NCBI GenBank assembly: GCA_903905655.1
Contig: CAIVHG010000083.1
Coordinates: forward strand, 2,785 to 66,784
Direction of reading: 5' to 3'
Length of the DNA: 64,000 nucleotides
Source of the DNA: an uncultured beta proteobacterium
GTDB lineage: Bacteria; Pseudomonadota; Gammaproteobacteria; Burkholderiales; SG8-41
Below, piece by piece: positions 1,811 through 62,738 of the stretch (position 1 is its first letter; each line of letters opens with the position of its first letter). The translations under genes were made by a program, and so were the position numbers. The notes under the pieces are model-generated. The model had not been told where the DNA came from. It did no database searches and was given only the letters and a program-made list of their open reading frames with translations.

Positions 1811-2575
1811 ATGTCAAAAACGGCGCTCACCTTCTCAAGTCTCACCAAGGATTATGGCCGCTCGGCCGTACTAAACGCCGTCTCGTTTGAGGTGGCCGCC
1901 GGGGATTTTTTTGGTCTGGTCGGGGTGAACGGGACCGGAAAGACCACACTGCTCAAATGCATGCTCGATCTATGTGCAGCCGATTCCGGAACCATTGAAA
2001 TTTTCGGCCGCTCGCACCGTGACCATACTGCACGCCAACGGCTCTCATTCCTGCCGGAGCGTTTCAATCCACCTTATTTCCTGACCGGCGAAAATTTCAT
2101 CCGCCATGCGCTACGCCTTCAATCGGTCGCCTATGATCGCCGGCAGGCTGAGCACACACTGGGCATGCTTGATCTCGATCTAGCAGCGCTGAAACTTCCA
2201 GTGCGCGCTTATTCCAAAGGCATGACGCAAAAACTGGGGCTGGCTGCTTGCTTCCTGAGCGGCAGGGAACTCTACGTATTCGACGAACCGACGAGTGGGC
2301 TGGATCCCAAGGCGCGCGCGCAATTTAAATCGCATCTACGCGAACTCAAGCGGCGATCTCACACGCTTTTTCTGACATCGCACGCCTTGACCGACGTCGC
2401 TGAAATCTGTGACCGCGTGGCGGTGATGCACGCGGGAAAGCTGTGCTTTGCTGGCACGCCGCGCGAGTTGTGCCAGAAATTTGGAGCGGACGCACTGGAG
2501 CAGGCATTTCTACGCTGCATAGAATCGAGCGCAGCGCACGATGCGTCGAATAATTCGCTGGGCCGCGCCGCTTAA
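1811..2575 (+). CDS. ABC transporter ATP-binding protein (ABC-2/NatA-like subfamily), no adjacent permease
   Basis: 254 aa with Walker A GVNGTGKTT, variant signature YSKGMTQKLGLA and Walker B LYVFDEPTSGLD. It is divergent from mlaF. A TAGAAT -10-like hexamer lies about 30 nt upstream. Confidence 0.85.
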   Translation: MSKTALTFSSLTKDYGRSAVLNAVSFEVAAGDFFGLVGVNGTGKTTLLKCMLDLCAADSGTIEIFGRSHRDHTARQRLSFLPERFNPPYFLTGENFIRHALRLQSVAYDRRQAEHTLGMLDLDLAALKLPVRAYSKGMTQKLGLAACFLSGRELYVFDEPTSGLDPKARAQFKSHLRELKRRSHTLFLTSHALTDVAEICDRVAVMHAGKLCFAGTPRELCQKFGADALEQAFLRCIESSAAHDASNNSLGRAA

Positions 2576-2653
2576 TGCACAGCAAACTTTGAGCCCTGAC
2601 ACACGCAGTATCAGGTTACGCCGTCAACGCCGCTGACCGACTAAAAACACGCC

Positions 2654-4075
2654 ATGGTCAAGCCTGCTTTGCTGATCGTCGACGATGATCCCATGATCGT
2701 CGATACGCTGAATTTCGTGCTCCAGCGTGAATTCACGGTCTATTCAGCGGCATCGCGTGCCGATGCGCAGGCACTGCTGCGCGGACTCGACCGCGCGCCA
2801 CCTCTTGCACTCGTTGATCTCGGACTGCCGCCGGCCCCGCATCGTCCCGACGAAGGCTATGCTCTGATCGCAGAACTCATCGCTCGTGCGCCGAACATGA
2901 AGATACTCGTGCTCTCTGGGCAAAATGCCGAAGCCAGCGCGCGGCATGCGCGCACCCTGGGCGCAATCGAGTTTATCGCCAAGCCATGCGATCCGGCAAA
3001 GATCAAAGCCATACTGCTCGATGCACTGCACATGAGCGAAGCTGAAATGCGCGCCGCAGCGGCAGATTCGGGACTCGTCGGCGCGAGCCTGCCCATAGAG
3101 AAGCTGCGCTGCCAGATCGCACAATACGCAAACGCGCCATTTCCGGTTCTGATCGAAGGCGAATCCGGCAGCGGGAAGGAACTCGTCGCCGCTGCGCTGC
3201 ACCGCATGAGTGCGCGCGCCGCGCGCGCATTTCTCGCACTGAACTGCGCTGCCATTGCGCCCACCCTGGTCGAGCCCACCCTTTTTGGCTACAGCAAGGG
3301 CTCGTTTACGGGCGCCACCTCGTCGCGTGCGGGCTACTTCGAGGATGCCAAGGACAGCACTCTGTTCCTGGACGAGATCGGGGAATTGCCTCTGGAGCTG
3401 CAGGCGAAGCTGTTGCGGGTGCTGGAAAACGGCGAGTATCAGCGCGTAGGCGAAACTCAGAGCCGGGTCAGCAACGCGCGTGTGATCGCGGCCACCAACC
3501 GCAACCTGCGCAACGAAATGCGCAGCGGGCGCTTCCGCGCCGATCTCTATCACCGGCTGTCGGTATTCACGATCGGGGTCCCGCCGCTGCGCGATTTGGG
3601 TGACGACAAGCACCTGCTGCTTGCATATTATCGGGACTTCTACGCACGCCAAGCGGCAAGCGCACCCTTCGAACTCGACGAGCAGGCGCTGTCGCTATGG
3701 CTTGATTACCCGTTTCCCGGCAACGTGCGCGAGTTGCGCAACATCGTGATCCGCCTGAGCACCAAGTACGGCGGCCAGCGCATAGCCCTCGCCCAACTCG
3801 AGGCCGAGCTCGACATGGAACGCATGCAGCCAGACGCGCCTCCGCTGCCCGTCCGCCAGGATTTCAAGACGGCGCTGGAGGCGGCCAAGAAGCATCTGCA
3901 GACGCAAAAAGACTTCAATCTGGACCTGATGTTGCAGCAGTGGGAACAGAGCTATGTGGAGGCAGCGCTCGCGGCGACCGCCGGTAACCTGTCGCGGGCG
4001 GCCAAATTACTTGGCATACAGCGCACCACGCTCTACAGCCGAATGCGCAACTACGAGTCGGCGCGTGAATCATGA
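2654..4075 (+). CDS. Sigma-54-dependent response regulator (REC + AAA+ + Fis-type HTH), PrsR-like
   Basis: 473 aa. The receiver has the acceptor-Asp context LALVDLGLPPAPHRPDEGYALIAELIARAPNMKILVLSG, which resembles the PEP-CTERM-box regulator family. The AAA+ core has GESGSGKE and the GAFTGA variant GSFTGA. The C-terminus carries the HTH NLSRAAKLLGIQRTTLYSRM. Confidence 0.85.
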   Translation: MVKPALLIVDDDPMIVDTLNFVLQREFTVYSAASRADAQALLRGLDRAPPLALVDLGLPPAPHRPDEGYALIAELIARAPNMKILVLSGQNAEASARHARTLGAIEFIAKPCDPAKIKAILLDALHMSEAEMRAAAADSGLVGASLPIEKLRCQIAQYANAPFPVLIEGESGSGKELVAAALHRMSARAARAFLALNCAAIAPTLVEPTLFGYSKGSFTGATSSRAGYFEDAKDSTLFLDEIGELPLELQAKLLRVLENGEYQRVGETQSRVSNARVIAATNRNLRNEMRSGRFRADLYHRLSVFTIGVPPLRDLGDDKHLLLAYYRDFYARQAASAPFELDEQALSLWLDYPFPGNVRELRNIVIRLSTKYGGQRIALAQLEAELDMERMQPDAPPLPVRQDFKTALEAAKKHLQTQKDFNLDLMLQQWEQSYVEAALAATAGNLSRAAKLLGIQRTTLYSRMRNYESARES

Positions 4076-4164
4076 ACCCCGCCGCCTCGATAGATCGCTG
4101 CCGGATGCGCCCCGCGTCGCCGGGCGCATGCAATCCGCATCCCTGCCACGACTAAGCGAGGCGG

Positions 4165-5715
4165 ATGATGTATTACGAGCACTTCGGTCTGGCACAGCCC
4201 CCGTTCCGGATTACGCCGGACACTGCGTTCTTCTACGATGGCGGCAATCGTGGCCCCATACTGGAAGCGCTGATTTACGCGATCCGGCACGGCGAGGGCA
4301 TCATCAAGGTCACCGGTGAAGTCGGCACCGGCAAAACAACGCTCTGCAGCATGCTGCAGACATTGCTGCCCGCCAGCGTTGAAACCATCTATATCGTCAA
4401 CCCTGGCGTCTCGCCCGCGGAAGTCCTGCGCGCGATTGCGCTCGAACTGCAGCTCGAAGCGCAGCACAGCTCGAGTCATCTTGAACTCATGCAGCTGGTG
4501 CACCACCATCTGCTCAAGTGCCACGCCGAGCACCGCCAGGTGGTCATGTTCGTCGAGGAATCGCAAAACATGCCACTCGCAACCCTGGAAGAGATCCGCC
4601 TGCTCTCGAATCTCGAAACTGCGCGCGGCAAACTGCTGCAAATCGTCCTGTTCGGCCAGCCTGAATTCGACGACACGCTGCGCCAGCCGAATATCAGGCA
4701 ATTGCGGGACCGCATCTGCTACAGCTTTCATCTGTCACCATTGAAGCAGACTGAAATCCGCGACTACCTGAATTTTCGCATGCGTGCGGCGGGCTACCAC
4801 GGGCCAGAACTTTTCACGAAGTGGAACAGCGCCGCGATCGCACGCGGCTCCCGCGGACTCACGCGGCGGATCAATTTGATCGCCGACAAGGCGCTGCTCG
4901 CGGCATATTCCGAGAACACACACGCCATCAAGTTCAAGCATGTTAAAGCCGCGATTCATGACTGCGAATTCGGGAACCTGCAGCCAGCAAAGCCCATGCT
5001 GCAGTTTGCGCTGGCACTCGGGCTGCTGGTGATCGGGACCGGCATCGGCGCGGCGCTCTACCCCATCGTGCGCACCTACCTGAATCGCGCAATTATGCCC
5101 CTCGCCTCCGAGTACCGCGAACTGTTGCCCGCCACAGGCAGCGGCGCATCTGCGCAGAATACCGCGCAGATGCTCTGGGCTAACGATCGTGCCAACTCGC
5201 AACTCATGTACACACAGCGTGTGCTGGCGGCTTCAGTGACCGCGACCGCATCCAGCGTAGACACCACGCCGCCTGCGCGGTCAGTTGATGCGGACGCGAG
5301 ATCTGCGGCGGGCGCTGAGCAGCCGGGAACCACCGAACAGTTAGAGCGGCGGCTTGCAGCGACTCAAGCCTGGCTGGAGCAACGCGCCCAAACCGATTAC
5401 AGCATTCAACTCATGGGTGTCGATAACGTCGCACAGTTGCAGCGTCAGCTCGGCTTTATAGGGAGTCATATCAATGTCAACGAAGTACACTTGTACCGCA
5501 CCATTGCAAAACACCGGCCCTCGCTCACCCTTTTGTACGGCTCGTTTGACGATCGCATGTCCGCTCAGAGCGCACTTGCCCAATTGCCCGCGGGGCTGAA
5601 GGCATTCAAGCCGATATTGCGCACGGCGCAGGGCATCCGTGCCGAGATCGCGCAAGCCGACAACGACAAACGGATCGCGGCACGCGACCGCGCAGCGCCG
5701 ACAAAAACGGAGTGA
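4165..5715 (+). CDS. ExeA/GspA/MshM-like AAA ATPase with a membrane span and a C-terminal SPOR-like domain
   Basis: 516 aa. The N-terminus YEHFGLAQPPFRITPDTAFFY plus P-loop GEVGTGKTT is typical of ExeA/MshM. There is one TM segment (LALGLLVIGTGIGAALY). The C-terminus DYSIQLMG...LYRT...LLYGSFDDRMSAQSALAQL looks like a SPOR or peptidoglycan-binding fold. Confidence 0.8.
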   Translation: MMYYEHFGLAQPPFRITPDTAFFYDGGNRGPILEALIYAIRHGEGIIKVTGEVGTGKTTLCSMLQTLLPASVETIYIVNPGVSPAEVLRAIALELQLEAQHSSSHLELMQLVHHHLLKCHAEHRQVVMFVEESQNMPLATLEEIRLLSNLETARGKLLQIVLFGQPEFDDTLRQPNIRQLRDRICYSFHLSPLKQTEIRDYLNFRMRAAGYHGPELFTKWNSAAIARGSRGLTRRINLIADKALLAAYSENTHAIKFKHVKAAIHDCEFGNLQPAKPMLQFALALGLLVIGTGIGAALYPIVRTYLNRAIMPLASEYRELLPATGSGASAQNTAQMLWANDRANSQLMYTQRVLAASVTATASSVDTTPPARSVDADARSAAGAEQPGTTEQLERRLAATQAWLEQRAQTDYSIQLMGVDNVAQLQRQLGFIGSHINVNEVHLYRTIAKHRPSLTLLYGSFDDRMSAQSALAQLPAGLKAFKPILRTAQGIRAEIAQADNDKRIAARDRAAPTKTE

Positions 5716-5800
5716 CCACGCTATGCCTGCAATCACGACGCGCGACCTGCGCCTCACTACCACTCCTAGTCTCAGCAGCCACAGCTTCCTGCCGGCTGCC

Positions 5801-7600
5801 ATGCCTGCGCGCATCTTCGTCTGCGCGCTCGCCCTATGCATGCTCAATGCCTGCTACCGGCCGGCGGTGTTGCCGCAATCGGAGGGGCACGTCTCAGCCC
5901 CCGCGGCGCGGCCGTCCGCTGGCGAAGCGCCCGCGCTGGCGCGCAACAGCCTGTACCTGCCGCCGCCCAAGCCCGAAATCAAAGCGCCGACCTATACGGT
6001 CGTCGTCAACGAAGTCCCGGTAAAAGAACTGCTGCTCGCGCTCGCGCGCGACACCAAACAGAACATCGACATCCATCCCGCATTGCAGGGGCTGGTGAGC
6101 ATCAACGCCGTGAATCAGACGCTGCCTGCGATTCTCGAGCGCCTCTCCAAGCAGGTAAATCTGCGCTACACCAACAGCGGAAACTCAATCGCAGTTTCCC
6201 CCGACACGCCATACGTAAAGACCTACCGCGTCAATTACGTGAACATGCTGCGCGAGACCACTTCCAGCATCGGTGTTTCCGGCCAAATCCAGGCCGCCGG
6301 CGGCGCGGGAGCGGCCAGCAACACTGCCGCGAGCAGCCAGCTCAACTCCTCAAACACGGTTGTCAAGACCGTTTCCAGCAATAACTTCTGGGACACGCTG
6401 CGCGACAACGTCCGGGCGATCCTCAACTCGACTCGCCAGCAGACGCTCTCGGCGGAAGCGAAAGCGGAACGCGCCGATCTCGTTAGGCAAGAGCAGGAAT
6501 TCAGGATCAAGCAGCTGGAGGCCACAAGCCGCGCCGGTCAGGGCGCATCCGGGGTCGCCAACAACATCATCGCCCCCGGCGGCGCCGTGCCGCAGCCGAC
6601 GCTGCTGCCCGATGATGTGGTCATCAACTCCATGGCCGGCACGTTGACGGTAAATGCGACGGAGAAGCAGCATCAGCTCGTGCAACAGCACCTCGACAGC
6701 ATCCTGCAGATGTCGCAACGCCAGGTATTGATCGAGGCGACGATCGCCGAAGTCACCCTGTCCGATGCCTACCAAGCAGGTATCGACTGGAGCAGGCTGG
6801 CCGTGAGCGGCGGCGTGAGCTTCAATCAATCTCTAATCGGCAGCGTCAGCAATGCGTTCGGGGCAGGCAGCCTCACCATCGGTTACGCGAATCCGACTTC
6901 GAGCGTCGGCAACCTGTTCGCCAATATCCGCCTGCTCAATCAATTCGGCAGCACGCGTGTGCTCTCGAGCCCCAAGCTGATGGCGCTCAACAATCAGACG
7001 GCCCTGCTCAAGATCGTCGACAACATCGTTTATTTCTCGATCGAAGCGCAGCAGGGCATCTCGAACAACGTAGGCATCTCGCCCGCGACCTTCACCACGA
7101 CTGCCCAGACGGTGCCGGTCGGCGTCGTCATGAGCATGACGCCGCAGGTGAATGAGAATGGACAGGTTACGCTGACGGTGCGACCAACGATTACCCGCGT
7201 CATAGATTTCAAGAATGATCCGAACCCCAGTTTGTGCGACGCTGCTCGGGTGAAATGCGTATCCAACCCGGTGCCGGAAATACAAACCCGCGAGATGGAA
7301 TCGGTGCTGCAGCTGGTAAGCGGACAGACCGCCATCATGGGCGGCCTCATGCAGGACAACGTTCGACGCGACCGCAACTCGGTTCCGGGTGCAGGCAATC
7401 TGTCAGGCATCGGTGAGCTGTTCGGCATGCGCAACGAAGTGGTCGCAAAATCGGAACTCGTGATCTTCCTGCGCTCAACGATCATCACCAATCCATCGCT
7501 CGAGAGCGAGGAACTGAAGTTCTATCAGCGCTTTTTGCCGCAGCAGGCCGCAGCGCCAACAGAGCCGCCGCCCGGCAACAGTACAGGTGCCGCGAAATGA
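5801..7600 (+). CDS. Outer-membrane secretin, MshL/GspD-like lipoprotein
   Basis: The secretin C-domain is recognisable (QVLIEATIAEVTLSDAYQAGIDW...STRVLSSPKLMALNNQTALLKIVDN...IMGGLMQDN...VPGAGNLSGIGELFG...SELVIFLRSTII). The ATG at 5801 gives the signal and lipobox MPARIFVCALALCMLNAC. Alternative upstream starts at 5723 and 5639 are less likely. Confidence 0.85.
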   Translation: MPARIFVCALALCMLNACYRPAVLPQSEGHVSAPAARPSAGEAPALARNSLYLPPPKPEIKAPTYTVVVNEVPVKELLLALARDTKQNIDIHPALQGLVSINAVNQTLPAILERLSKQVNLRYTNSGNSIAVSPDTPYVKTYRVNYVNMLRETTSSIGVSGQIQAAGGAGAASNTAASSQLNSSNTVVKTVSSNNFWDTLRDNVRAILNSTRQQTLSAEAKAERADLVRQEQEFRIKQLEATSRAGQGASGVANNIIAPGGAVPQPTLLPDDVVINSMAGTLTVNATEKQHQLVQQHLDSILQMSQRQVLIEATIAEVTLSDAYQAGIDWSRLAVSGGVSFNQSLIGSVSNAFGAGSLTIGYANPTSSVGNLFANIRLLNQFGSTRVLSSPKLMALNNQTALLKIVDNIVYFSIEAQQGISNNVGISPATFTTTAQTVPVGVVMSMTPQVNENGQVTLTVRPTITRVIDFKNDPNPSLCDAARVKCVSNPVPEIQTREMESVLQLVSGQTAIMGGLMQDNVRRDRNSVPGAGNLSGIGELFGMRNEVVAKSELVIFLRSTIITNPSLESEELKFYQRFLPQQAAAPTEPPPGNSTGAAK

Positions 7601-8856
7601 GCCTGTTGATGAAAGCGCTGGAAAAAGCATCCAAAGACCGCGCATCTACAGACGCCGCCCAAAACACGGAAAAAATCTCGGTGCCACGTCCCTGCAGCGC
7701 GCCACCCGATCTTAGGCTTGAGCCGATTCCGCTGCACAGCACAGCTTCGCATGACGCTTCGACCTCACCCCGCAACCCGCAAGGCGCGAGCGCAACCGCT
7801 CATGGAGATGCGCCGGCTGATCCCAGGCTGGCCGGCGTCATCCGGCAGGCGGGCGAACGCAGAGGTAGCAGCCTGATCGGACACTTGAGCGATCACCCGC
7901 TGATCACGTTTGGCGCCTGCGCCGCCCTCTTCCTCGCCTGCTACGGGGGCTATATCTATCTGCAGATCACACGGCCGACGCTACTCGTCAGACTGCCGAT
8001 GGGTCCGGTGGCGGTGGCCGGTGATGCGCCAAACGCGCACCCTTCCGAAATCGCCACCTCAAAGCCCGACTACAGTGCGGCACCAGCGCCTCTCGCGCTC
8101 GCTCCGCTGCTGCAACCGCCCGCTGCACAAACTGTGGAGCCAGGGCTTCCCCGACTATCTGCCGCGGTCGCAGCGCCGCGCCGCAATTCCGCTGCCACCG
8201 GCTCCGTCGCGACGGCTGTGCCAGCTGCGCCGAATTCCGGCAGCGCTGCGATCCAGGTCTCCGCAGGCGACGCAGCCCCCGCGCTCAATCCGCTGCTCGC
8301 ACAGGCCTACCAGGCTTACAACAGCGGCCGCATTGAAACCGCACAGCCGCTCTACGAACAAGCGCTCAAGAGCGAACCGGAAAACCTGGATGTCCGCTAC
8401 GGATTAGCGGCAATCGCCGCACTGCAGGGCGACCAACTCGCAGCAGCGCGGCATTACGTCAGGATTTTAGAGCTCGATCCCCGCAACGCGCTGGCGCAAG
8501 CCGGATTGATCGCGATGGCGGGCAGCGCCGATCCGCTCGCTGCCGAAACGAGACTCAAGCAACTCATCGCACGCGAGCCATCGGCCTATCTCTACTACGC
8601 CCTCGGCAACGCCTATGCCGACCAGCGGCGCTGGCCGGACGCCCAGCAAGCTTATTTCCAGGCGCATCACCTGGAGCCGGCCAACCCCGACTATGCCTAT
8701 AACCTCGCGGTCGGACTCGAGCATATCGGGCAACCGCGCAGCGCGCTCGGCTTCTACAGGCGCGCTGCGCAACTCGCGACGGCGACAGGCCATGCCGGCT
8801 TCGATACTGCAGCCGCGCAGGCGCGCATCTCCCGGCTGGCACGCGATTTTCCCTAA
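7597..8856 (+). CDS. TPR-repeat protein, MshN-like
   Basis: 419 aa. Its start overlaps the secretin stop (ATGA). It has one TM segment, a Pro/Ala-rich linker, then TPR-like repeats (AYQAYNSGRIETAQPLYEQALKSEPENLDVRYGLA..., YYALGNAYADQRRWPDAQQAYFQAHHLEPANPDYAYNLAVGLEH). Its position between secretin and ATPase matches MSHA loci. Confidence 0.65.
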   Translation: MSLLMKALEKASKDRASTDAAQNTEKISVPRPCSAPPDLRLEPIPLHSTASHDASTSPRNPQGASATAHGDAPADPRLAGVIRQAGERRGSSLIGHLSDHPLITFGACAALFLACYGGYIYLQITRPTLLVRLPMGPVAVAGDAPNAHPSEIATSKPDYSAAPAPLALAPLLQPPAAQTVEPGLPRLSAAVAAPRRNSAATGSVATAVPAAPNSGSAAIQVSAGDAAPALNPLLAQAYQAYNSGRIETAQPLYEQALKSEPENLDVRYGLAAIAALQGDQLAAARHYVRILELDPRNALAQAGLIAMAGSADPLAAETRLKQLIAREPSAYLYYALGNAYADQRRWPDAQQAYFQAHHLEPANPDYAYNLAVGLEHIGQPRSALGFYRRAAQLATATGHAGFDTAAAQARISRLARDFP

Positions 8857-8947
8857 CATCACGAGAATAACAGCGCCCACATGCTGCTGCACGCGAACCC
8901 GATGCGAAATTCCATCCTGTCCGACATTCGCGGCACACTGAACTTTC

Positions 8948-10642: not shown

Positions 10643-10643
10643 C

Positions 10644-13409: not shown

Positions 13410-14014
13410 ACATCCACGATCTCAAGGCGCTCAGGATTCCACTGGCGATGCTGCTGGCCGTGCTTGCCACAGCGGCAGGCCTGATCTATTACAGCAATGC
13501 CGTGCTCGCTCAGGCGCGGCTAGAATTGACCGGGAAACAGGCTCAACTGCGCGAGGCGCGCCTGCGGCTGCAAACCTCCGGCGACCAGAAGGCAGTCATC
13601 GTGCGTTATCTGGACGACTACCGCCGCCTGCAGCAGCTCGGTTTCATCGACGAGGAGCAGCGCATCAACTGGCTCGACGGCTTGCGCCTCAGCAATCAGC
13701 AGCTGCGGCTGTTCGGCGTGGATTACGAAATCGGCACGCAGCAGCCATACCCCTATGCGAGCGAGCTCAATCCGGGCCAGCTGGCGCTGTTTCAATCGGT
13801 CATGAAAGTCCACCTGAGCCTGCTGCACGAAGCGGACCTGCAGCATTTCCTGGGCATCCTCTCGCAGCAGGGCGCGGGCGTGTTCTCGGTCAACGAGTGC
13901 CTGCTGGAGCGCAGCGAGGCACCCGACGGCATACGCTATCAACCCAATCTGCGCGCGAACTGCGAGCTCGCCTGGATCACCATGCGGCCAGGCGCACCGG
14001 GAGAGAAGAAATGA
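13406..14014 (+). CDS. Bitopic coiled-coil protein, PilO/MshJ-like
   Basis: The ATG at 13406 overlaps the upstream stop (ATGA). The 202 aa product has an N-terminal TM segment (IPLAMLLAVLATAAGLIYY), a coiled coil (QARLELTGKQAQLREARLRLQ) and a globular domain. Confidence 0.45.
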   Translation: MNIHDLKALRIPLAMLLAVLATAAGLIYYSNAVLAQARLELTGKQAQLREARLRLQTSGDQKAVIVRYLDDYRRLQQLGFIDEEQRINWLDGLRLSNQQLRLFGVDYEIGTQQPYPYASELNPGQLALFQSVMKVHLSLLHEADLQHFLGILSQQGAGVFSVNECLLERSEAPDGIRYQPNLRANCELAWITMRPGAPGEKK

Positions 14015-14598
14015 TGCGAACTATGACTGCGCTGGTGCTGTGTCTGGTCTGGTGTGCACCGCTCGCTGCGGCCGATATCGAACGCATGTTTTACACGCGG
14101 CAGGAACGCGCTCTGCTCGACGACATGCGAGAAAACAAATTACGCAGCACAGTCGCCAGCGAGGAGCCTGCCGCGCCGATCCCACAGCATGTGGTGGTGA
14201 ATGGACTCGTGCGCCGCAGCGATGGAAAAAACACCGTTTGGCTCAACAACCGCGCAACCACGGAACGTCGTGCAGAGCCCATCAGCGTCACGACCAGCAA
14301 GAACAACGACCGCGTCAGTCTCACCGTACGCGACAGCGGTCGCAGCATCGACCTCAAGGTCGGACAAAGCGCCGAGATCGTGAGCGGGACCATTACCGAA
14401 GGCTATGCCAAGCGCGCAGCACCGATACCGGTGACCAAACCGGATGGCGAAAGAAGCACAGGCAGCAACGGCAAGACCACACGCGCTGGCTCCATGAGAT
14501 ACGATCAAATCACCTCCAGAGACAGCCCTCGGGGGGGCGAAAAAACGTTTGATCCGCCGGATGAAGCTGTGCGCGCGAAAGATGAAAATTCAAAATAG
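14011..14598 (+). CDS. Secreted/periplasmic protein of unknown function (in the MshK/PilP position)
   Basis: The ATG at 14011 overlaps the upstream stop (ATGA). The signal peptide is MMRTMTALVLCLVWCAPLAAAD. The 195 aa product has a charged, low-complexity C-terminus. Confidence 0.4.
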   Translation: MMRTMTALVLCLVWCAPLAAADIERMFYTRQERALLDDMRENKLRSTVASEEPAAPIPQHVVVNGLVRRSDGKNTVWLNNRATTERRAEPISVTTSKNNDRVSLTVRDSGRSIDLKVGQSAEIVSGTITEGYAKRAAPIPVTKPDGERSTGSNGKTTRAGSMRYDQITSRDSPRGGEKTFDPPDEAVRAKDENSK

Positions 14599-14636
14599 TT
14601 TTGCGTCGTGTTAATCGGGCTTCAGAACCACTCACG

Positions 14637-15839
14637 ATGCTCGTGATACTCACTCCTGACAATTCCGGTCCGGCTTTGACCAGCTGCCGCACCCGCGGCT
14701 CGGCTCAGGCAGGCTATGCGCTGCTGCTGTTTCTGCTCCTGATCATCACAGGTCTCGCCGCGGCACTGTTAAGCTACGCCAGAACTTCGTCGCAGCAACT
14801 CACCAGAGATCAGATCACGGCCGCAGCGCTGGCGCAGGCTAAAACGGCGCTGATCGGCGAGGCGGCAGACGACCTTAACAGGCCCGGTAGCTTGCCGTGC
14901 CCAGATCAGGACAACAATGGCCAGCTTGATCTCGGCGTCGACTTCTCTGGCAACAGCTGCGTAAGCTATATTGGCAGGCTTCCCTGGAAAACTCTGGGCC
15001 TGCCGGACCTACGGGATGGAAGCGGCGAGCGGCTCTGGTATGCCTTGTCCCCCAACTTTCGCGATTATTCCGCAGCCGGACCGCTCAACAGCGACACCAA
15101 CGGCATATTGACGATCACCGGCATCAGTCCGGCAGCCCAGATAATAGCAATTGTATTTGCGCCCGGCCCTGCGGTCGGCATCCAACTCCGCGATGCCGCA
15201 AACCAAAACAACGTTGCGAACTATCTTGACGGCATCAATACGCTGGGTGGCAATACCAATATTTATACCACGGGTCCTGCGACCGATATCTTCAACGATC
15301 GCTTGCTAGAAATAACGAGCGACGCGCTGTTTCCCGCCGTCACGATGCGGGTCGCCCGCGAGGCGAAGTTGCTTCTCAACAAGTACTATACCAACTATAA
15401 CTATTTTCCAAACGCAGCCAGCTACGCCAGTTCGAGCTGCGACCCCAACCTTACTCAGGGCAGAATTCCACTTACGATAGCCAACACCTGCCCTAAGCAA
15501 CAAGAATGGGGCCCATCAATAATGAAGACTTGGAAATGGTTTTTTGACAACAACTGGCACCAGGTGGCGCATTACGCGGTCGCCCCCGCTTGCGTTGATC
15601 CCATGCAACCCAATTGCACGGGCACCGGCTTTCTCACGGTAATAGGCGCCGGGGCATCCAACCCTACCGTAGAAGCGCTGACCATCGTCACGGGGCGCGC
15701 TTACACTGGCCAAGCTCGCCCTTGCGCAGTTGTCGCCGATTGTCTTGAAGCTCCCGAGAATACGAACACCGACAACGTTTACCTCGATGCCCGAGTCACT
15801 CCCAGCACCAACGACCGCCTGATGGTTGTTGCCCCTTAG
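14637..15839 (+). CDS. Large minor pseudopilin-like protein lacking Glu+5 (GspK-like class)
   Basis: About 400 aa. The N-terminus ...RGSAQAG/YALLLFLLLIITGLAAALL resembles a prepilin leader and hydrophobic helix, but position +5 is Leu rather than Glu. The large periplasmic domain has several Cys residues. GC is lower (about 50-55%) than its surroundings. A TTG at 14601 is an alternative start. Confidence 0.45.
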   Translation: MLVILTPDNSGPALTSCRTRGSAQAGYALLLFLLLIITGLAAALLSYARTSSQQLTRDQITAAALAQAKTALIGEAADDLNRPGSLPCPDQDNNGQLDLGVDFSGNSCVSYIGRLPWKTLGLPDLRDGSGERLWYALSPNFRDYSAAGPLNSDTNGILTITGISPAAQIIAIVFAPGPAVGIQLRDAANQNNVANYLDGINTLGGNTNIYTTGPATDIFNDRLLEITSDALFPAVTMRVAREAKLLLNKYYTNYNYFPNAASYASSSCDPNLTQGRIPLTIANTCPKQQEWGPSIMKTWKWFFDNNWHQVAHYAVAPACVDPMQPNCTGTGFLTVIGAGASNPTVEALTIVTGRAYTGQARPCAVVADCLEAPENTNTDNVYLDARVTPSTNDRLMVVAP

Positions 15840-15848
15840 GACGAGCCG

Positions 15849-16586
15849 ATGAAGACAGATGGCGGTTTTACACTGATTGAACTTGCCGTGGCACTGGTCG
15901 TCGTCACACTCATATTAGGCGGCCTGCTGGTGCCACTGAACACCCAGGTTGAGCAACGCAAAATCTCGGATACGCAAAAGAGTCTCGATGAAATTAAGGA
16001 AGCACTGATCGGGTTTGCCGTTGCCTATGGTCACCTGCCGTGTCCGGCAACTTCTGCAACTGGCCTCGCAAGCGGCCTGGAAGGGCCACGCACCGGAGGC
16101 ATATGCACGCCACGTACAGGTTTTGTTCCATGGGCTACGCTGGGCACCTCCAAATTAGATGCCTGGGGAAATATCTTCGGCTACAGGGTTAGTGACAACT
16201 ATTCTTCCGCTGTGTCTCCAATCACCTTCACCAGCTCAGCCGATATGACTATTCTGACGAAGGACGGCACCGGTGCGATCGCCTTTCTTAGCAACGTCAA
16301 CGGCACACCAGCAGTGGTGATGTCCTACGGCAGGAATGGTTACGGTTCCGTCAATGATCGAGGCATCGCACAAGCACTACCCGCTAATTGGCCGGCAAAC
16401 AACGCCGACGAAAATAGCAACGCAACCCGCTTAAGCGCAGACCCCCCGATCCGAGCTGGCTTTGTCAGTCGCGCCCCGCAAGCCGATAGCGCAAGCGGCG
16501 CTGGTGGAGAATTCGATGACATCGTGGTGTGGATCTCACCAAGTATTTTGTTCAACCGGATGGTGGCAGCGGGCAGACTGCCGTAG
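15849..16586 (+). CDS. Prepilin-type N-terminal cleavage/methylation domain protein (minor pilin or pseudopilin)
   Basis: It carries the canonical class III signal MKTDGG/FTLIELAVALVVVTLILGGLL. 245 aa. Confidence 0.8.
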   Translation: MKTDGGFTLIELAVALVVVTLILGGLLVPLNTQVEQRKISDTQKSLDEIKEALIGFAVAYGHLPCPATSATGLASGLEGPRTGGICTPRTGFVPWATLGTSKLDAWGNIFGYRVSDNYSSAVSPITFTSSADMTILTKDGTGAIAFLSNVNGTPAVVMSYGRNGYGSVNDRGIAQALPANWPANNADENSNATRLSADPPIRAGFVSRAPQADSASGAGGEFDDIVVWISPSILFNRMVAAGRLP

Positions 16587-16594
16587 CCACGACT

Positions 16595-18295
16595 TCAGAC
16601 AGCGGCGCGCGCCAGCTCGAAACACACCCTGCCGTCGACGTTGCTGTTGAGCGCAAGCCGGTAACCCAGGCGCTGTGCATGCCGCCCTGCCTGTAACAGC
16701 CCAACCCCGAGTCCAGTGGCAGATGGGACGGGCGCGCTGAACAGTCCGGATGCAATCGCAGCGGGTAGCGCAGGGCCGGTATCGCACACCGTAAGCCTCC
16801 CTCCGCGCGCGCAGGCTAACGCGACTTCAATGCTCACGCCCGGATGCTGCTGCGCCTTCGCGATCGCATTCTGCAGCAGATTTTCCGCAACGCTGTCGAA
16901 GAGCTCGCCCGGCAACGGGACGCCCGCAGTGACGCCAGCATCCAGAAAGCTGACGCACCCCACGGCATAGCGCTGTTTGAGCGCCTCCCACCAGGCCAGT
17001 GCGTCGACCTGCGTCGTCCTCGCCTGGTGCGGCGTCCTGAGCTTCTCGAGCGTGAGCGAGAGGCGCTGCGCGATGGCGGGCAGCTGACGCTTGATCAAAG
17101 CCTGAAACTCCACCGACTCCTCAGCGTTGCTGTCCTCAGCCGCGGCACATAGCGCCGCCAGCGACTGCAGTAGATTCTTCACGTCGTGCGTAAGCCGCGC
17201 GCCCGTCTCGTAAATGGCTTGGGCATAGGCATTGTCGCGTTGCGCCTGTTCGCGCCGCTTCGCGTCGTAAAAGTGCGCCAGCATCTGAGTCAACAGCTTC
17301 AGATGCAGGTAGAGCGCCGGGCTCAGAGACCAGCGCGTGTGGAACGTCAGGTGCACATCACTGGCCGTACATTGCGTCGTGAAACGCGTACGCGCCCCGA
17401 GCTCCCCGCTCGCATGCGGCGCATCCCATGCAACACCCGATACCCAGGGCAGCTCGCAAAGGCTCTGCATTGCAAGCGCCATGAACTGCGCCGGTTGCGG
17501 TTCGCGCTCGGCGACATCTGCGAGTTCATGCAGCCAGCGCTCGAACGGCAAACCCAGCGTCATCAGATAGCGCGACCAGAGCTGACCGATGCCGATGAAA
17601 CCGCTGTGCGGATTCCACAGCCAGCTCAGGCTGAGCAGGACAACTGCCATCACCATCAGGCTTTGTGCAAGCGCCAGCGGATAGTCGCCCTGGCTCAACT
17701 GCTTCACCACAAAGCTGCCGAGCACGAGCCCGGCCACCAGCAGGAACAGCATCATGCTGTAGTAGAGATCCACGACGACCGGCGGACAGCGGCGCCCGCC
17801 CACCGCCGGAACGGCGATGATGACGAGCGGCAGCCATACCAGCCCGTACTGCACGAACCACACGAACGTCGACGCCAGCGCCAGGTCCGCGAACAGGTGC
17901 GGAACCACCCACACCAGCAGCAACGTCAGCAAGTATAGTGCCGCCAGCAGCGCGACGAGACGCTGGCTGCGCGGCGCGCTTCCCAGCAGGCTACCGCCGA
18001 TCAGCGCGAATAACACCGCGATCCAGGTAGCCATCACCCACCAGGTGTTCCAGACCATGAACATCAGCGCTGCCGCGGCGATCCACCCAATGTGCCGCGG
18101 TTCCAGGCTGCGCTCACCGCACCACAGCGGCTGCCACACCAGGAACAGCCCACAATGCGCGAGCAGCATGGCGCGCGCCGGCCAGCCGTCGATGCCCCAG
18201 GCGAGCGAGCTATGCAGCGTCAGCAGCATCGCAGCCAGCCACCATTGCGGATGTGATGCTGTAGATTGAGACGGCAAAACCGTGGAGGATTCCAT
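16595..18295 (-). CDS. Polytopic membrane sensor histidine kinase, PrsK-like
   Basis: 566 aa. The first roughly 250 aa are almost entirely hydrophobic (about 8-10 predicted TM segments). It has the H-box ARLTHDVKNLLQSL, the N-box ENLLQNAIAKA and the G-box TGLGVGLLQ. It is convergent with the pilus operon, with stops 8 bp apart. Confidence 0.85.
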   Translation of the reverse strand: MESSTVLPSQSTASHPQWWLAAMLLTLHSSLAWGIDGWPARAMLLAHCGLFLVWQPLWCGERSLEPRHIGWIAAAALMFMVWNTWWVMATWIAVLFALIGGSLLGSAPRSQRLVALLAALYLLTLLLVWVVPHLFADLALASTFVWFVQYGLVWLPLVIIAVPAVGGRRCPPVVVDLYYSMMLFLLVAGLVLGSFVVKQLSQGDYPLALAQSLMVMAVVLLSLSWLWNPHSGFIGIGQLWSRYLMTLGLPFERWLHELADVAEREPQPAQFMALAMQSLCELPWVSGVAWDAPHASGELGARTRFTTQCTASDVHLTFHTRWSLSPALYLHLKLLTQMLAHFYDAKRREQAQRDNAYAQAIYETGARLTHDVKNLLQSLAALCAAAEDSNAEESVEFQALIKRQLPAIAQRLSLTLEKLRTPHQARTTQVDALAWWEALKQRYAVGCVSFLDAGVTAGVPLPGELFDSVAENLLQNAIAKAQQHPGVSIEVALACARGGRLTVCDTGPALPAAIASGLFSAPVPSATGLGVGLLQAGRHAQRLGYRLALNSNVDGRVCFELARAAV

Positions 18296-18384
18296 CTTTG
18301 ACCCCTCAAGCTCGCTTCAAGTGCAGCCTCCGGGACGCAACATTCGCTATACTGACCCGGTTAACGGATCGGGCCAGCATATCC

Positions 18385-19158
18385 ATGCACGGGCACCAAA
18401 TTGCAGCCATCGCCCGCTTCACGGTAATTGAAGCCTGGCGCACGCGGTTGCTGTTGCTCTACGCAGTCTTGCTCGGGCTGATCCTCGGCGCGGCATATTT
18501 TCTGCAGCAACTCGCGATCACGGAAAGCATCCGCCTGCAGCTTGCGTTTTCCGCTGCCGCCATCCGGCTGGCGTCGGTCTGCGTGCTGTGCCTGCATGTG
18601 TCAACCAGCGTCACCCGGGAATTCAACGACAAGGGCCTCGAGCTCACCCTCTCTTTCGATCTGCCGCGCTCCCATTATATTCTCGGCCGCCTGGCGGGGT
18701 TCTTGATCGTTGCAGTGCTGCTGGCGATGATGGCGACGCTCCCGCAACTGCTGCTCGCTCCGGCGCCGGCGGCTTTGCTGTGGGGTGCGTCGCTCGTACT
18801 GGAGCTGGCGATCGTCGCCGCGCTCAGTTTGTTCTGCGTAGTGACCTTCACTCAGCTCATGCCGGCGGCAAGCTTTGTCTGCGGATTCTATCTGCTCGCG
18901 CGTGCGCTGACGGCGCTACGGCTGATGAGCAGCGCACCGCTCGCCAGTGCAGACACGCTCACCCATCAGTTGATCGGCGTACTGATCGATACCTTGGCGC
19001 TGCTGTTGCCGGCACTGGACGATTTTGCGCAAAGCGCCTGGCTAATCGAGGGCACGGCAAACTGGGCCGTGCTCGGCGCTAATGCGGCCCAGGCAGGGCT
19101 CTACATAGCACTGCTCGGCGCAGCGACGATGTTCGACTTCTACCGCAAAAATCTATGA
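18385..19158 (+). CDS. ABC-2-type transporter permease
   Basis: About 257 aa and 6 hydrophobic segments. The N-terminus IAAIARFTVIEAWRTRLLLLYAVLLGLILG is typical of ABC-2 permeases. There is no ATPase gene next to it. The ATG at 18385 is preferred over the 18298 start that abuts the kinase gene. Confidence 0.7.
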   Translation: MHGHQIAAIARFTVIEAWRTRLLLLYAVLLGLILGAAYFLQQLAITESIRLQLAFSAAAIRLASVCVLCLHVSTSVTREFNDKGLELTLSFDLPRSHYILGRLAGFLIVAVLLAMMATLPQLLLAPAPAALLWGASLVLELAIVAALSLFCVVTFTQLMPAASFVCGFYLLARALTALRLMSSAPLASADTLTHQLIGVLIDTLALLLPALDDFAQSAWLIEGTANWAVLGANAAQAGLYIALLGAATMFDFYRKNL

Positions 19159-19859
19159 AGCGTCGGGAGGAGCGGCCGCTCGCCGCAGTGCCGCGTGCAG
19201 TATGGTTTGTGCTATGCGCCGTCCTGAGCCTGCAAATACTGTGGCACGCCTCGCTTTCCAGGCCGGTCGCGAGCGCAGACGCCCTTCCAACTCCGCCACG
19301 AGCAGGCGCGCTGCGGCTTGCAAGCCTGGGCGAACCCGCGGCGCTTGCCCAGTTGATGACGCTCTACCTGCAGGCCTTCGACAACCAGCCGGGCGTCAGC
19401 ATCCCGTTTAGTGAACTCGATTACGCACGCGTGACGGAATGGCTGGCCGCCATACTCGAGCTCGATCCCGCCAGCCAATATCCCCTGCTGCTCGCCGCCC
19501 AGGTCTACTCCCAAGTGCCGGACGCGGCGCGCGTCCGCCTGATGCTCGATTTCGTCGAACGGCAGTTCATGCGCGATCCGAACCGCCGCTGGCGCTGGCT
19601 TGCGCATGCCGTGATCGTGAGCAGGCACCAGTTGCACGACGACGCGCTGGCTCTGCGCTACGCGCGCGAAATCGCGCGCAGGGCGCCCGCGGCGCCGGAT
19701 TGGGCGAAGCAGATGCACATCTTCATACTCGCGGACATAGGCGAAATCGAGAGTGCGCGGATTCTCTTGGGTGGTCTGATCGAGAGTGGCCAGATTACGG
19801 ATCTGCACGAGCAGCGCTTCTTGCTGGAACGGCTGAAAGCAATGAAATCCGGCGAGTAG
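19155..19859 (+). CDS. Membrane-anchored helical-repeat protein of unknown function
   Basis: 234 aa. Its start overlaps the permease stop (ATGA). It has an N-terminal anchor (AVWFVLCAVLSLQILW) followed by an all-helical, TPR-like sequence. Confidence 0.55.
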   Translation: MKRREERPLAAVPRAVWFVLCAVLSLQILWHASLSRPVASADALPTPPRAGALRLASLGEPAALAQLMTLYLQAFDNQPGVSIPFSELDYARVTEWLAAILELDPASQYPLLLAAQVYSQVPDAARVRLMLDFVERQFMRDPNRRWRWLAHAVIVSRHQLHDDALALRYAREIARRAPAAPDWAKQMHIFILADIGEIESARILLGGLIESGQITDLHEQRFLLERLKAMKSGE

Positions 19860-19984
19860 CCGTCAGTGTCGTCGAAGTATCGACGGCCGCCCCCCACTGC
19901 CGCGTGCGAATTGCATTCAATGCGGCCAATCATCGAGCGAGCATCAGTAGGGCCACGCCGTTAACCTGCGTGCGGGCGAATGGA

Positions 19985-20000
19985 TGGCACAGATGTTGCT
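19985..20000 (+). promoter_or_regulatory. Sigma-54 (-24/-12) promoter for the pilin gene
   Basis: TGGCAC-AGATG-TTGCT is an exact match to the consensus TGGCAC-N5-TTGCW. It lies in a 185 bp intergenic region, 45 bp upstream of the pilin ATG. Confidence 0.7.
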
Positions 20001-20044
20001 CATTGCGTATGGCTTAATTGCTTACTTTGTAAAGGACCGCGGCG

Positions 20045-20740
20045 ATGCGCAGACAAACCGGTTTTACCTTGATCGAAATCGCGATCGTGCTCGTCATCAT
20101 AGGCCTGTTGCTGGGCGGAATCCTTAAGGGGCAGGAGCTCATCACCAGCGCGCGCGTGCGCAACCTCATCTCACAGCAGGAAGGCGTCAAGGCCGCATAT
20201 TTTGGCTTCCTCGATCGCTATCGCGCGCTTCCCGGAGACTACGATCAGGCGAGCAAGAACATCGCGAACATCGCCGGAGTGACGCAATGCGGAACCGGCG
20301 ACGGCAATGGCAACGGACGCATCGAGACGACCGGCAACGAGAACATCCTGGCATGGGAACATTTATCGAAAGCCGGCTTCATCAATGGATCGTACACGTG
20401 CAACCCTACAGAATCGAATGCAACGACCCCGACCAACCCGTACGCGGTGCGGCTGCAGCTGGTATGGGACAGCGATTATGCCGATGCCGGCGGCAATCCA
20501 CCGCTGCGCCACAATCTCAAAACCGGCAATCAGATCCCTTCGGACATACTCGCGGAAGTCGATCGCAAGATAGACGACGGCAACGCCCTGGCCGGGGTGT
20601 TTAGATATACCAATGCAACTTATCTCGGCGGCGCATCGCCCGTCGCTTCGTCTGCATCAACCTGCTATTCAGCGACAGCGCCCTATAACTGGAACGCCAC
20701 CAGCCCGCAGTCGAATTGTAGCGGCGTCACGCTGTTCTAG
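20045..20740 (+). CDS. Type IV pilin / T2SS-type pseudopilin (candidate major subunit)
   Basis: It carries the class III signal MRRQTG/FTLIEIAIVLVIIGLLLGGILKGQELI. 231 aa with four Cys residues (two potential disulfides). GC is about 50%, lower than the flanks. Confidence 0.85.
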   Translation: MRRQTGFTLIEIAIVLVIIGLLLGGILKGQELITSARVRNLISQQEGVKAAYFGFLDRYRALPGDYDQASKNIANIAGVTQCGTGDGNGNGRIETTGNENILAWEHLSKAGFINGSYTCNPTESNATTPTNPYAVRLQLVWDSDYADAGGNPPLRHNLKTGNQIPSDILAEVDRKIDDGNALAGVFRYTNATYLGGASPVASSASTCYSATAPYNWNATSPQSNCSGVTLF

Positions 20741-31914: not shown

Positions 31915-31988
31915 TGGAGCGGGTGAAGGGAATCGAACCCTCGTCTTAAGCTTGGGAAGCTTTCGTTCTACCATTGAACTACACCCGC
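31915..31988 (-). tRNA. tRNA-Gly (anticodon CCC)
   Basis: The reverse complement is GCGGGTG-TA-GTTCAATGGTAGAAC-G-AAAGC-TTCCCAA-GCTTT-AAGAC-GAGGG-TTCGATT-CCCTT-CACCCGC-TCCA. It forms a full cloverleaf with a CCC anticodon and an encoded CCA. Confidence 0.9.
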
Positions 31989-44569: not shown

Positions 44570-44589
44570 GTGTGCGGTCGCTCCAAGCG

Positions 44590-62713: not shown

Positions 62714-62738
62714 CGCGGGCTCCTGAGTACGCGACTGC

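Follow-up and report, generated by a model that had tools for sequence, protein, structure and literature searches.

A predicted MSH-class type IV filament locus of Betaproteobacteria with a split ABC-2 transporter module and a sigma-54 promoter at its major pilin gene

Introduction

On contig CAIVHG010000083.1 of an uncultured beta proteobacterium (assembly GCA_903905655.1) genes for a type IV filament machine are enclosed by the separated parts of an ATP-binding cassette (ABC) transporter and accompanied by a two-component pair, which raises the question of what such a machine builds and whether the transporter and the regulators belong to it. The locus occupies positions 1811-20740 of a stretch of 64,000 nucleotides (positions 2,785 to 66,784 of the contig), which was analyzed as a whole and is referred to here as the window. 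A first-pass annotation of this DNA had read the locus as one regulon inserted between mlaF and kdsD, in which a PrsK/PrsR-like switch couples a filament or secretion machine resembling the mannose-sensitive hemagglutinin (MSHA) pilus to an ABC-2 exporter. Vibrio cholerae makes its initial attachment to surfaces by means of pili of this mannose-sensitive hemagglutinin (MSH) class, which also serve as a model of how cyclic di-GMP (c-di-GMP) controls a nanomachine. Judged by its sequence, the locus encodes a type IV filament machine of the MSH class (MSHA-like) and represents a variant, as yet undescribed, of a machine already known. We consider it probable that this machine builds an adhesive surface pilus, with a PilSR-like sigma-54 switch acting on the pilin gene and with a transporter of the ABC-2 type and its tetratricopeptide repeat (TPR) protein as an integral accessory.

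Results

Components of the filament machine

Coordinates are window positions, and genes were taken from the open reading frame (ORF) listing and from family scans of the 64-kb stretch. Every gene that the first-pass annotation had proposed for the locus was found, at or near its proposed position and in the proposed order. Firstly, the class of the machine is indicated by its secretin and its extension ATPase. The secretin (5723-7600, + strand; the start codon is uncertain and the ORF opens at 5639) contains the Pfam domains Secretin and Secretin_N_2 and scores best on the MshL model (TIGR02519, 233.3 bits, against 131 bits for GspD and 83.5 bits for PilQ), and the lipobox LNAC read at its N-terminus suggests that it is probably a lipoprotein. 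The MshE-type extension ATPase (8948-10642, +) combines T2SSE (407 bits) with MshEN (57 bits) and scores above the cut-off of the c-di-GMP motif model NF053729 (62.1 bits, cut-off 38), the tandem motif of the form RLGxxLLxxGLIxxxxLxxxLxxQ being readable in the sequence as RLGELLAQQGLISADQLGIALAEQ and IGRLLVRLGFITEGTIRDIM. A role of MshE with c-di-GMP has been described in V. cholerae (PMC4624765). The inner-membrane platform of the GspF/PilC/MshG type (10644-11852, +) contains two copies of T2SSF and scores 293 bits on TIGR02120 (cut-off 424). The ExeA/GspA/MshM-like AAA ATPase encoded upstream of the secretin (4165-5715, +) matches AAA_22 with 99 bits, and its sole NCBIfam match is the XrtA/PEP-CTERM-associated ATPase TIGR03015 (217 bits, cut-off 324.5), a family that its curators reportedly describe as homologous to the MSHA and GspA ATPases. 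It has one transmembrane (TM) segment, a hydrophobic stretch at residues 281-299, followed at residues ~409-481 by a weak SPOR-like (peptidoglycan-binding) region (E=0.0015, under the Pfam cut-off), so that the protein lies closer to ExeA/GspA than to the MshM of Vibrio, which is short and cytoplasmic. The protein in the MshN position (7597-8856, +) is matched by several TPR families of Pfam across residues 230-400, and its position is constant in all loci compared.

Secondly, three proteins downstream of the platform gene are candidates for the inner-membrane assembly complex. The 518-aa protein p518 (11853-13409, +) has no Pfam, NCBIfam or PDB sequence match, its family profile included. Its AlphaFold2 model (mean pLDDT 72.5) consists of an actin-like N-terminal domain, a long TM/coiled-coil helix and a small alpha-beta (ferredoxin-like periplasmic) domain, and the top Foldseek matches are PilM (5eox, E=1e-8), FtsA and the cytoplasmic domain of EpsL. 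Because the modeled N-terminal fold matches PilM, FtsA and EpsL, and the helix and alpha-beta domain follow it, p518 is on this model a PilM-PilN fusion of the MshI/GspL kind. The bitopic 202-aa protein p202 (13406-14014, +) is formed by an N-terminal TM segment and a coiled coil and is conserved in all loci, and the secreted 195-aa protein (p19x; 14011-14598, +) has a signal-peptide-like N-terminus and a small beta-rich domain with the conserved motifs LGRLFFTPAQR and VNGxVRRSDGKxTVWLNN...LKVGQ. Neither has a family or PDB match, searches of the PDB with their family profiles included; position and architecture make them candidate partners of the PilO/MshJ/GspM-like and PilP/MshK-like kinds, respectively.

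Finally, three genes encode pilin-like proteins. The large minor-pilin-like protein p412 (412 aa; 14601-15839, +) has a GspK/MshP-style N-terminus, with the family consensus QRGQAxL preceding a TM helix, no Glu5 and an invariant motif LPCPD...GRLPWRTLGLPDLRD; it has no family or PDB match, its family profile against the PDB included, and may be a tip or priming minor pilin. The minor prepilin pp245 (15849-16586, +; N-terminus GFTLIE) matches Pfam N_methyl and, weakly, GspG. The major prepilin (231 aa; 20045-20740, +) matches Pfam N_methyl (30 bits) and TIGR02532, with the leader MRRQTG / FTLIE and a pair of Cys residues near its C-terminus. T2SSF, AAA_22 (in the ExeA-like protein) and N_methyl, which at the level of domains correspond to the MshG platform, the MshM ATPase and the MshA pilin, thus occur in one locus. 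With an MshL-best secretin, an MshEN ATPase, a GspF platform and N_methyl prepilins, the identification as an MSHA-like type IV filament machine in the first-pass annotation is upheld. That annotation had also listed the lack of a prepilin peptidase and of a retraction ATPase as oddities of the locus, and this part does not stand. No retraction ATPase is found in the locus, which is not unusual since we know of no PilT gene in the V. cholerae MSHA locus. No prepilin peptidase is found among the locus genes, which is not odd either since, according to a survey of these systems, the MSH class is encoded in a single locus, from which a prepilin peptidase is absent in every case (Denise, Abby and Rocha 2019, PMC6668835).

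Some of these components could also be read as parts of an exporter resembling a type II secretion system (T2SS), in which a short pseudopilus pushes folded proteins through the secretin while the ABC-2 transporter handles a second, related cargo. For the extension ATPase and the platform the highest-scoring models are those of GspE and GspF (519 and 293 bits), the accessory ATPase is ExeA/GspA-like with its TM segment and possible peptidoglycan-binding end, the pilins weakly match GspG and GspH, p518 also matches the EpsL cytoplasmic domain, and the absent retraction ATPase suits such a system. However, all T2SS model scores lie under their cut-offs, the secretin is far better on MshL than on GspD, and the MshEN module for c-di-GMP in the ATPase is typical of MshE. 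No PDZ-bearing GspC is encoded and, with two minor pilin-like genes, no GspH-I-J-K set either, and the major pilin, with its 231 residues and C-terminal Cys pair, is unlike GspG. Partial T2SS similarity is moreover expected, because the survey places MSH systems as a sister group of T2SS (PMC6668835). We judge a T2SS-like exporter to be quite unlikely and prefer an MSH-class machine that builds a surface pilus.

Conservation and genomic position

Since p518 has no family match, it was chosen as a system-specific marker for a scan of species-level genomes (one genome per species). The protein has hundreds of relatives, none of them named, and the scan returned 203 loci, the best 80 of which were fetched and mapped by tblastn with all window proteins. 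The order ATPase, regulator, ExeA-like, secretin, TPR, MshE, GspF, p518, p202, p19x, p412, prepilin, kinase (on the opposite strand), permease, p234, pilin, kdsD is kept in essentially every fetched locus long enough to judge, so that the gene order given by the first-pass annotation is confirmed by ORFs and families in the window and recurs whole in essentially all 80 genome loci. Across these loci p518 is 42-66% identical to the window protein, and the MshE-type ATPase is 76-87% identical in 79 of 80 loci and 54% identical in one (L070; L numbers designate related loci). To cover the upstream side, metagenome contigs were also scanned with the ABC ATPase as the query. Among the 69 informative loci obtained in this way the ABC ATPase gene is followed by the regulator gene in 57, by the ExeA-like gene in 10, by the permease gene in 1 and by another gene in 1, while mlaF and mlaE are divergent from it in 42 of 57 informative loci. 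The gene order is conserved in about 150 related loci. The carriers form a large group of Betaproteobacteria from soil and groundwater, most of them uncultured, and related forms occur in a Desulfobulbaceae bin.

In the window the locus begins with the ABC ATPase gene, which is divergent from mlaF (769-1572, -; identified by the MlaF model), itself followed by a partial mlaE. It ends with the major pilin gene, downstream of which lie kdsD-kdsC-lptC-lptA-lptB-rpoN (rpoN at 24549-26012) and rapZ (27919-28764). The first-pass annotation had described the locus as inserted at this junction, next to rpoN. Its position there is borne out; a recent insertion is not, because the mlaF-locus-kdsD arrangement is common to the clade, the G+C content of the locus is that of its flanks, and the pilus genes of Sulfuricella denitrificans lie at the same junction. 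Recent horizontal insertion was rejected on account of native composition and conserved position. The pilus core is old, and its placement between mlaF and kdsD is ancestral for part of the Betaproteobacteria. The sole tRNA gene of the window, tRNA-Gly(CCC) at 31915-31988 (-), lies away from the locus and therefore offers no integration site for it.

Gene junctions within the locus are as tight as the first-pass annotation had stated. Four are 4-nt overlaps of the ATGA type (7597/7600, 13406/13409, 14011/14014 and 19155/19158) and three have gaps of 0-2 nt (10642/10644, 11852/11853 and 14598/14601). A scan of the locus for sigma-70 promoters and terminators gave fewer sites than shuffled controls.

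Variation among the relatives is seen in the pilin-type genes and at the upstream end. Major pilin genes number one to three tandem copies, and in some loci extra pilin-type copies occur through duplication of the p412-like protein or of the minor prepilin (copy-number variants: L026, L034, L046, L070 and L072; L002-L004, L006, L009, L010, L052, L058, L062 and L077). The size of p412 as well as its copy number differs between loci. Two metagenome loci of a regulator-less variant (L121 and L144) have a second, divergent MshE/GspF-like pair (~6900-9900, -; 36% and 27-28% identity), which lies directly upstream of the ABC ATPase gene on the opposite strand.

Use of a distant p518 version (28% identical to that of the window) as the query reached cultured bacteria and another class. 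Sulfuricella denitrificans skB26 (L161) has the pilus genes between mlaDEF and kdsD-kdsC-lptCAB-rpoN, with both the ABC module and the two-component pair absent. In a Desulfobulbaceae metagenome bin (L163/L164) the ATPase gene comes first and genes for the permease and a p234-like protein (p236) precede the pilin gene; the pair is absent and the neighborhood is unrelated. Oxalobacteraceae bacterium GrIS 1.18 (L166; GCA_040544425.1) has the same arrangement (with p272) in a different context, also with the pair absent; an ISL3-family transposase gene (17057-18376, -) is found immediately downstream of its pilin gene. Two further loci, each in a different context, have a short REC-HTH_8 regulator and a kinase in place of the pair: Undibacterium sp. 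Ji50W (L162), with permease and p237 but no ATPase gene seen in the locus, has this regulator and a 354-aa kinase between p23x and pilin, and a JGI contig (L165), with the ATPase first and with permease and p236, has the same short pair. The regulator module is therefore interchangeable, since related systems with a transporter either lack the two-component pair or have another in its stead, whereas the split ABC module persists as a constant part of one subfamily.

The split ABC transporter module

The ABC ATPase (abcA; 1811-2575, +) matches ABC_tran with 80 bits, and its nearest NCBIfam models are RbbA, DrrA, NodI, GldA and PmtA, themselves partners of the ABC-2 type; all scores are under the cut-offs. 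The permease gene (18385-19158, +) is divergent from the kinase gene and probably starts at 18385 rather than at the TTG at 18298. The first-pass annotation had called its product an ABC-2 permease, and this is upheld through its relatives, though not by a direct Pfam match, as the window protein has none at E<=0.1. The protein is placed in the ABC-2 group because its orthologues carry PF12698 (ABC2_membrane_3), its family profile weakly matches the PmtD permease (E=0.006) and it has six hydrophobic segments; JGI labels its relatives 'ABC-type transport system involved in multi-copper enzyme maturation, permease' (NosY-like). The ATGA overlap of the permease gene with the gene of the 234-aa protein p234 (19155-19859, +) indicates that the two are translationally coupled. 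p234 has no family match. Its AlphaFold2 model (pLDDT 80.8) shows one TM helix followed by 10 helices, and Foldseek gives weak generic TPR matches, the best being PilW (2vq2, E=0.016) and none reaching E<=0.001; homology to PilW was not accepted, since the match is weak and generic. With positive charges ahead of the TM helix, a periplasmic location of the repeat domain is to be expected, and p234 is probably a membrane-anchored, periplasmic TPR-like protein. Its family comprises 689 clusters at 50% identity, all of ~230-260 aa and none annotated, and the p234 homologue invariably lies directly after the permease gene.

In the locus the three genes are split, with the ATPase gene first and the permease and p234 genes just before the pilin gene. 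That they nevertheless form one unit follows from L148, where ATPase, permease and p234 are a contiguous three-gene operon between metXW and ptsI/gshAB. Together with the joint presence of ABC and pilus genes across orders and classes, this bears out the first-pass view that the separated transporter genes belong together. Of the neighborhood co-occurrence that the annotation had asked about, the part concerning the ABC genes holds, as they travel with the pilus genes; that the regulator and kinase always do so does not.

An alternative is that the transporter and the pilus have no functional connection: pilus genes would at some time have entered a transporter operon of three genes, and this arrangement would merely have been passed on since. 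It draws on L148, where no pilus gene lies within 10 kb of the contiguous operon, on Sulfuricella, with pilus genes and no transporter, and on the size of the p234 family, of whose 689 clusters many members may be stand-alone. However, the ATPase leads a pilus cluster in 67 of the 69 informative metagenome loci, the permease gene coming next in 1. Burkholderiales, Oxalobacteraceae and Desulfobulbaceae all retain the split arrangement, which occurs in at least four different chromosomal contexts, and the permease and p234 genes always lie beside the major pilin gene, as pilGHI lies beside pilA in Myxococcus xanthus. Between the Betaproteobacteria and the Desulfobulbaceae bin the transporter proteins are also better conserved than several pilus proteins; compared with the window, the transporter parts of the Desulfobulbaceae locus are 57%, 46% and 53% identical, whereas the PilM-N protein is 31% identical. 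An unrelated transporter is in our judgment unlikely, and we favor an accessory that is integral to the pilus subfamily. As the pilus locus of Sulfuricella denitrificans is transporter-free, the transporter is not strictly required in every member.

The sigma-54 promoter and the two-component pair

A sigma-54 (-24/-12) promoter, TGGCACAGATGTTGC (19985-19999, +), precedes the major pilin gene and is the sole perfect TGGCAC-N5-TTGC match in the 64 kb, in agreement with the first-pass annotation, which had placed such a promoter there. In 38 of 39 loci the pilin ATG is preceded, at a distance of 35-57 nt, by an equivalent site, which scores >=18 in 28 of the 39, a score reached in 2.4% of random windows (26% for a score >=16). 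No conserved site was found before the permease, mshE, exeA, regulator, p412, pp245 or secretin genes, where sites are about as frequent as in the background (26%); upstream of the ABC ATPase gene the comparison comprises the one locus with enough upstream sequence. A recurrent 'site' before exeA was discarded, since it falls in conserved coding sequence for the C-terminus of the regulator. A sigma-54 regulon spanning the whole locus was likewise rejected, the sites before the other genes tested being at about the background rate, and the first-pass proposal of one regulon is not supported: the promoter is conserved before the pilin gene alone among the genes tested, and the two-component pair is a variable add-on.

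Among loci without an AAA+ regulator the pilin gene lacks a sigma-54 site in 5 of 6. The sixth, L165, has a sigma-54-like site, TGGCAACATTATTGCC, ~60 nt upstream of the pilin gene at 18156, and its local regulator is of the short REC-HTH_8 type, with no AAA+ domain. This site is either a chance match or the target of a distant activator, and a rule that the sigma-54 promoter occurs only with an AAA+ regulator was abandoned, as L165 breaks it. An inverted repeat, GTGA-N6-TCAC (e.g. GTGATATATTTCAC), was noticed ~60-75 nt upstream of the pilin sigma-54 promoter in L028, L043, L051, L048 and L032. It is a candidate binding site of the regulator; no clear copy is seen in the window between 19860 and 19984.

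The response regulator (2654-4075, +) consists of Response_reg, Sigma54_activat (212 bits) and HTH_8. The histidine kinase (16595-18295, -) matches HATPase_c (27.7 bits), and its family profile matches the catalytic domains of solved histidine kinases. It has ~7 TM segments with many invariant Trp, Gly and Pro residues, no sizeable periplasmic domain, and the H-box THDVKNLLQSL. Because the sole conserved sigma-54 promoter precedes the major pilin gene, the pair would work like PilS/PilR, and PilR-like activation of the major pilin gene is, by analogy, the simplest reading; with its ~7 conserved TM segments and without a periplasmic domain the kinase would be a PilS-like intramembrane sensor.

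The first-pass annotation had instead likened the pair to PrsK/PrsR, so that a switch of the exosortase/PEP-CTERM style would control the filament machine and the ABC-2 exporter as one regulon. The top NCBIfam match of the regulator is indeed PrsR (TIGR02915, 344.7 bits), TIGR03015 is the sole match of the ExeA-like ATPase, the TPR protein weakly matches PrsT, and the many-TM N-terminus and the HDxKN H-box of the kinase resemble PrsK. However, the PrsR score is far under its cut-off (502.6) and level with that of NtrC (TIGR01818, 341 bits, cut-off 558.6), TIGR03015 too stays under its cut-off, and the kinase gives weak matches to the catalytic domains of other kinases, PrsK (TIGR02916) not being among its matches at E<=10. 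As the first-pass annotation had itself remarked, there is no exosortase, PEP-CTERM or glycosyltransferase gene in the locus, and none among the 30 other window ORFs scanned. Membership in PrsK/PrsR is therefore unsupported, the regulator being under the cut-off and tied with NtrC, with no PrsK match and no exosortase genes. Given also that the sigma-54 promoter is confined to the pilin gene and that related systems with a transporter do without the pair, we regard a PrsK/PrsR-type regulon as highly improbable and retain the PilSR-like switch.

Other genes in the window

Two further regions of the window may be mentioned. Two adjoining DUF3108 paralogues (43517-45315, -) are flanked by an rsmB-like methyltransferase gene and a purN-like formyltransferase gene. 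At 59384-63413 (-) a 1109-aa UvrD-type helicase with a C-terminal PD-(D/E)XK nuclease domain is encoded beside a second PD-(D/E)XK protein, and the two look like an AddAB-type pair.

Discussion

In the mechanism that we propose the secretin lipoprotein would form the outer-membrane pore, with the ExeA/GspA-like ATPase and the TPR protein beside it, and the GspF platform, the PilM-PilN fusion and the putative PilO-like and PilP-like partners would constitute the inner-membrane assembly complex. The tandem c-di-GMP motif of the MshE-type ATPase is intact, so that extension of the pilus is probably switched on by c-di-GMP through MshE, as in V. cholerae. Priming of the fibre would fall to the GspK/MshP-like protein p412 together with one minor prepilin, its major subunit would be the 231-aa prepilin, and the prepilin peptidase would come from elsewhere in the genome, as it does in every MSH system. 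The PilR-like regulator would activate the sigma-54 promoter of the major pilin gene, and the kinase, with its long and strongly conserved membrane domain, probably detects an intramembrane signal, perhaps the pool of pilin. ABC ATPase, ABC-2 permease and p234 would together form one transporter, a vertically co-inherited accessory of this pilus subfamily whose most likely task is to aid the biogenesis of the pilus or the handling of pilin at the inner membrane; more speculatively, p234 may dock the transporter to a periplasmic part of the machine. A direct role, in which the ABC-2/TPR module is a working part of the filament machine and not a passenger, is put forward tentatively and strikes us as doubtful. 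Driven by ATP, such a module could extract, recycle or quality-control pilins (or cleaved leader peptides) in the inner membrane, or could power disassembly in a class of pili without a retraction ATPase.

Several observations weigh against a pilus machine of the MSH class with this switch and this accessory. The 233.3 bits of the secretin fall slightly short of the MshL cut-off (250.2), and the MshM, MshI, MshJ and MshK assignments are drawn from fold, architecture and position. The pilus genes of Sulfuricella denitrificans come without the transporter, L148 has the transporter apart from pilus genes, and in L165 a sigma-54-like site precedes the pilin gene beside a regulator without an AAA+ domain. 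We nevertheless hold the MSH-class pilus to be the probable product of the locus.

An MSH-class system of this kind is common in soil and groundwater Betaproteobacteria (203 species-level genomes matched), with a fixed place beside lipopolysaccharide-transport and rpoN genes, and the locus of one subfamily has retained, across the boundaries of orders and classes, both an ABC-2 transporter and a TPR-like membrane protein that lacks annotation. The analysis gives provisional roles to seven protein families that have no Pfam or NCBIfam model, and it illustrates that PrsR as the top match of a regulator is no evidence for an exosortase system. A second, independent association of an ABC transporter with a filament, in a different filament class, makes the question posed by PilGHI of M. 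xanthus more general. If the module does work in the machine, the PilGHI requirement of Myxococcus would be one case of a widespread principle that holds in several bacterial classes. Oxalobacteraceae bacterium GrIS 1.18 and Undibacterium sp. Ji50W are cultured carriers that would allow simpler genetics; among cultured bacteria no carrier of the form with the sigma-54 pair was found.

Among known systems, the MSHA pilus of V. cholerae shares with the window locus the MshM/ExeA-like ATPase, the MshL-like secretin, the TPR protein in the MshN position, MshE with its MshEN domain, the MshG/GspF platform and the MshI-like PilM-N fusion, encoded in a single locus without a peptidase or a retraction ATPase. 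The two differ in that the window order is M-L-N-E-G-I-J-K whereas the V. cholerae order is I-J-K-L-M-N-E-G, in the TM segment and periplasmic tail of the ExeA-like protein, and in the far smaller number of pilin-like genes in the window locus, where nothing has the size of MshQ (~1,200 aa). The window locus also includes the ABC-2 transporter and, in this clade, the sigma-54 two-component pair. The hosts differ as well, being here Betaproteobacteria and Desulfobulbaceae, whereas those named for MSH systems in the available part of the survey are Gammaproteobacteria, Epsilonproteobacteria and Chrysiogenetes (PMC6668835). A literature search for MSHA together with an ABC transporter in Betaproteobacteria found no description of the present system.

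The two-component pair resembles PilS/PilR of Pseudomonas aeruginosa in combining a kinase without a periplasmic sensor domain, an NtrC-family activator and a sigma-54 promoter before the pilin gene. In contrast to PilS, which has 6 TM segments, the window kinase has ~7 hydrophobic segments, no PAS domain was detected in it and its H-box reads HDVKN; the kinase and regulator genes are moreover 12.5 kb apart and on opposite strands. In P. aeruginosa itself PilS is a polytopic kinase and PilR an NtrC-family activator of a sigma-54 promoter at the major pilin gene (PMC6058289). PrsK/PrsR (TIGR02916/TIGR02915) is alike in that the receiver and AAA+ region of the regulator score marginally best on the PrsR model and that many TM segments precede the kinase core, but no exosortase, PEP-CTERM or polysaccharide genes lie near the window locus. 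The transporter itself resembles ABC-2 exporters whose permeases are small and have 6 TM segments (PmtABCD of Staphylococcus, NosFY and GldAFG), its ATPase being nearest to DrrA, NodI, GldA and PmtA and its permease weakly similar to PmtD and PF12698. It differs from these in its membrane-anchored TPR-like partner, which is found in none of them, in the splitting of its genes across a pilus locus and in reaching no curated cut-off.

Finally, the pilS-pilR-pilA-pilG-pilH-pilI cluster of M. xanthus resembles the window locus in that ABC transporter genes adjoin the major pilin gene within a type IV pilus cluster. Wu et al. (1998) reportedly assigned the ATPase to PilH, the permease to PilI and the part of a small accessory protein to PilG, and M. 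xanthus pilA is sigma-54-dependent. To our knowledge no link of an ABC transporter to a type IV pilus other than PilGHI had been described before; the requirement for PilGHI goes back to the late 1990s and still lacks a mechanistic explanation. The M. xanthus machine is a type IVa pilus with PilB, PilT, PilC and PilMNOPQ whereas that of the window is of the MSH class, and the M. xanthus transporter genes are contiguous whereas the window ATPase gene lies at the opposite end of the locus. The presence of pilS-pilR in the same cluster (PMC6060248), and the loss of pilus-dependent S motility and of exopolysaccharide production upon deletion of pilGHI (PMC5544727, PMC6060248), make this a precedent for a combination that the first-pass annotation had taken to be undescribed. 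By gene content and pilin-adjacent position, PilGHI of M. xanthus appears to be the closest precedent for the pilus-linked ABC module described here.

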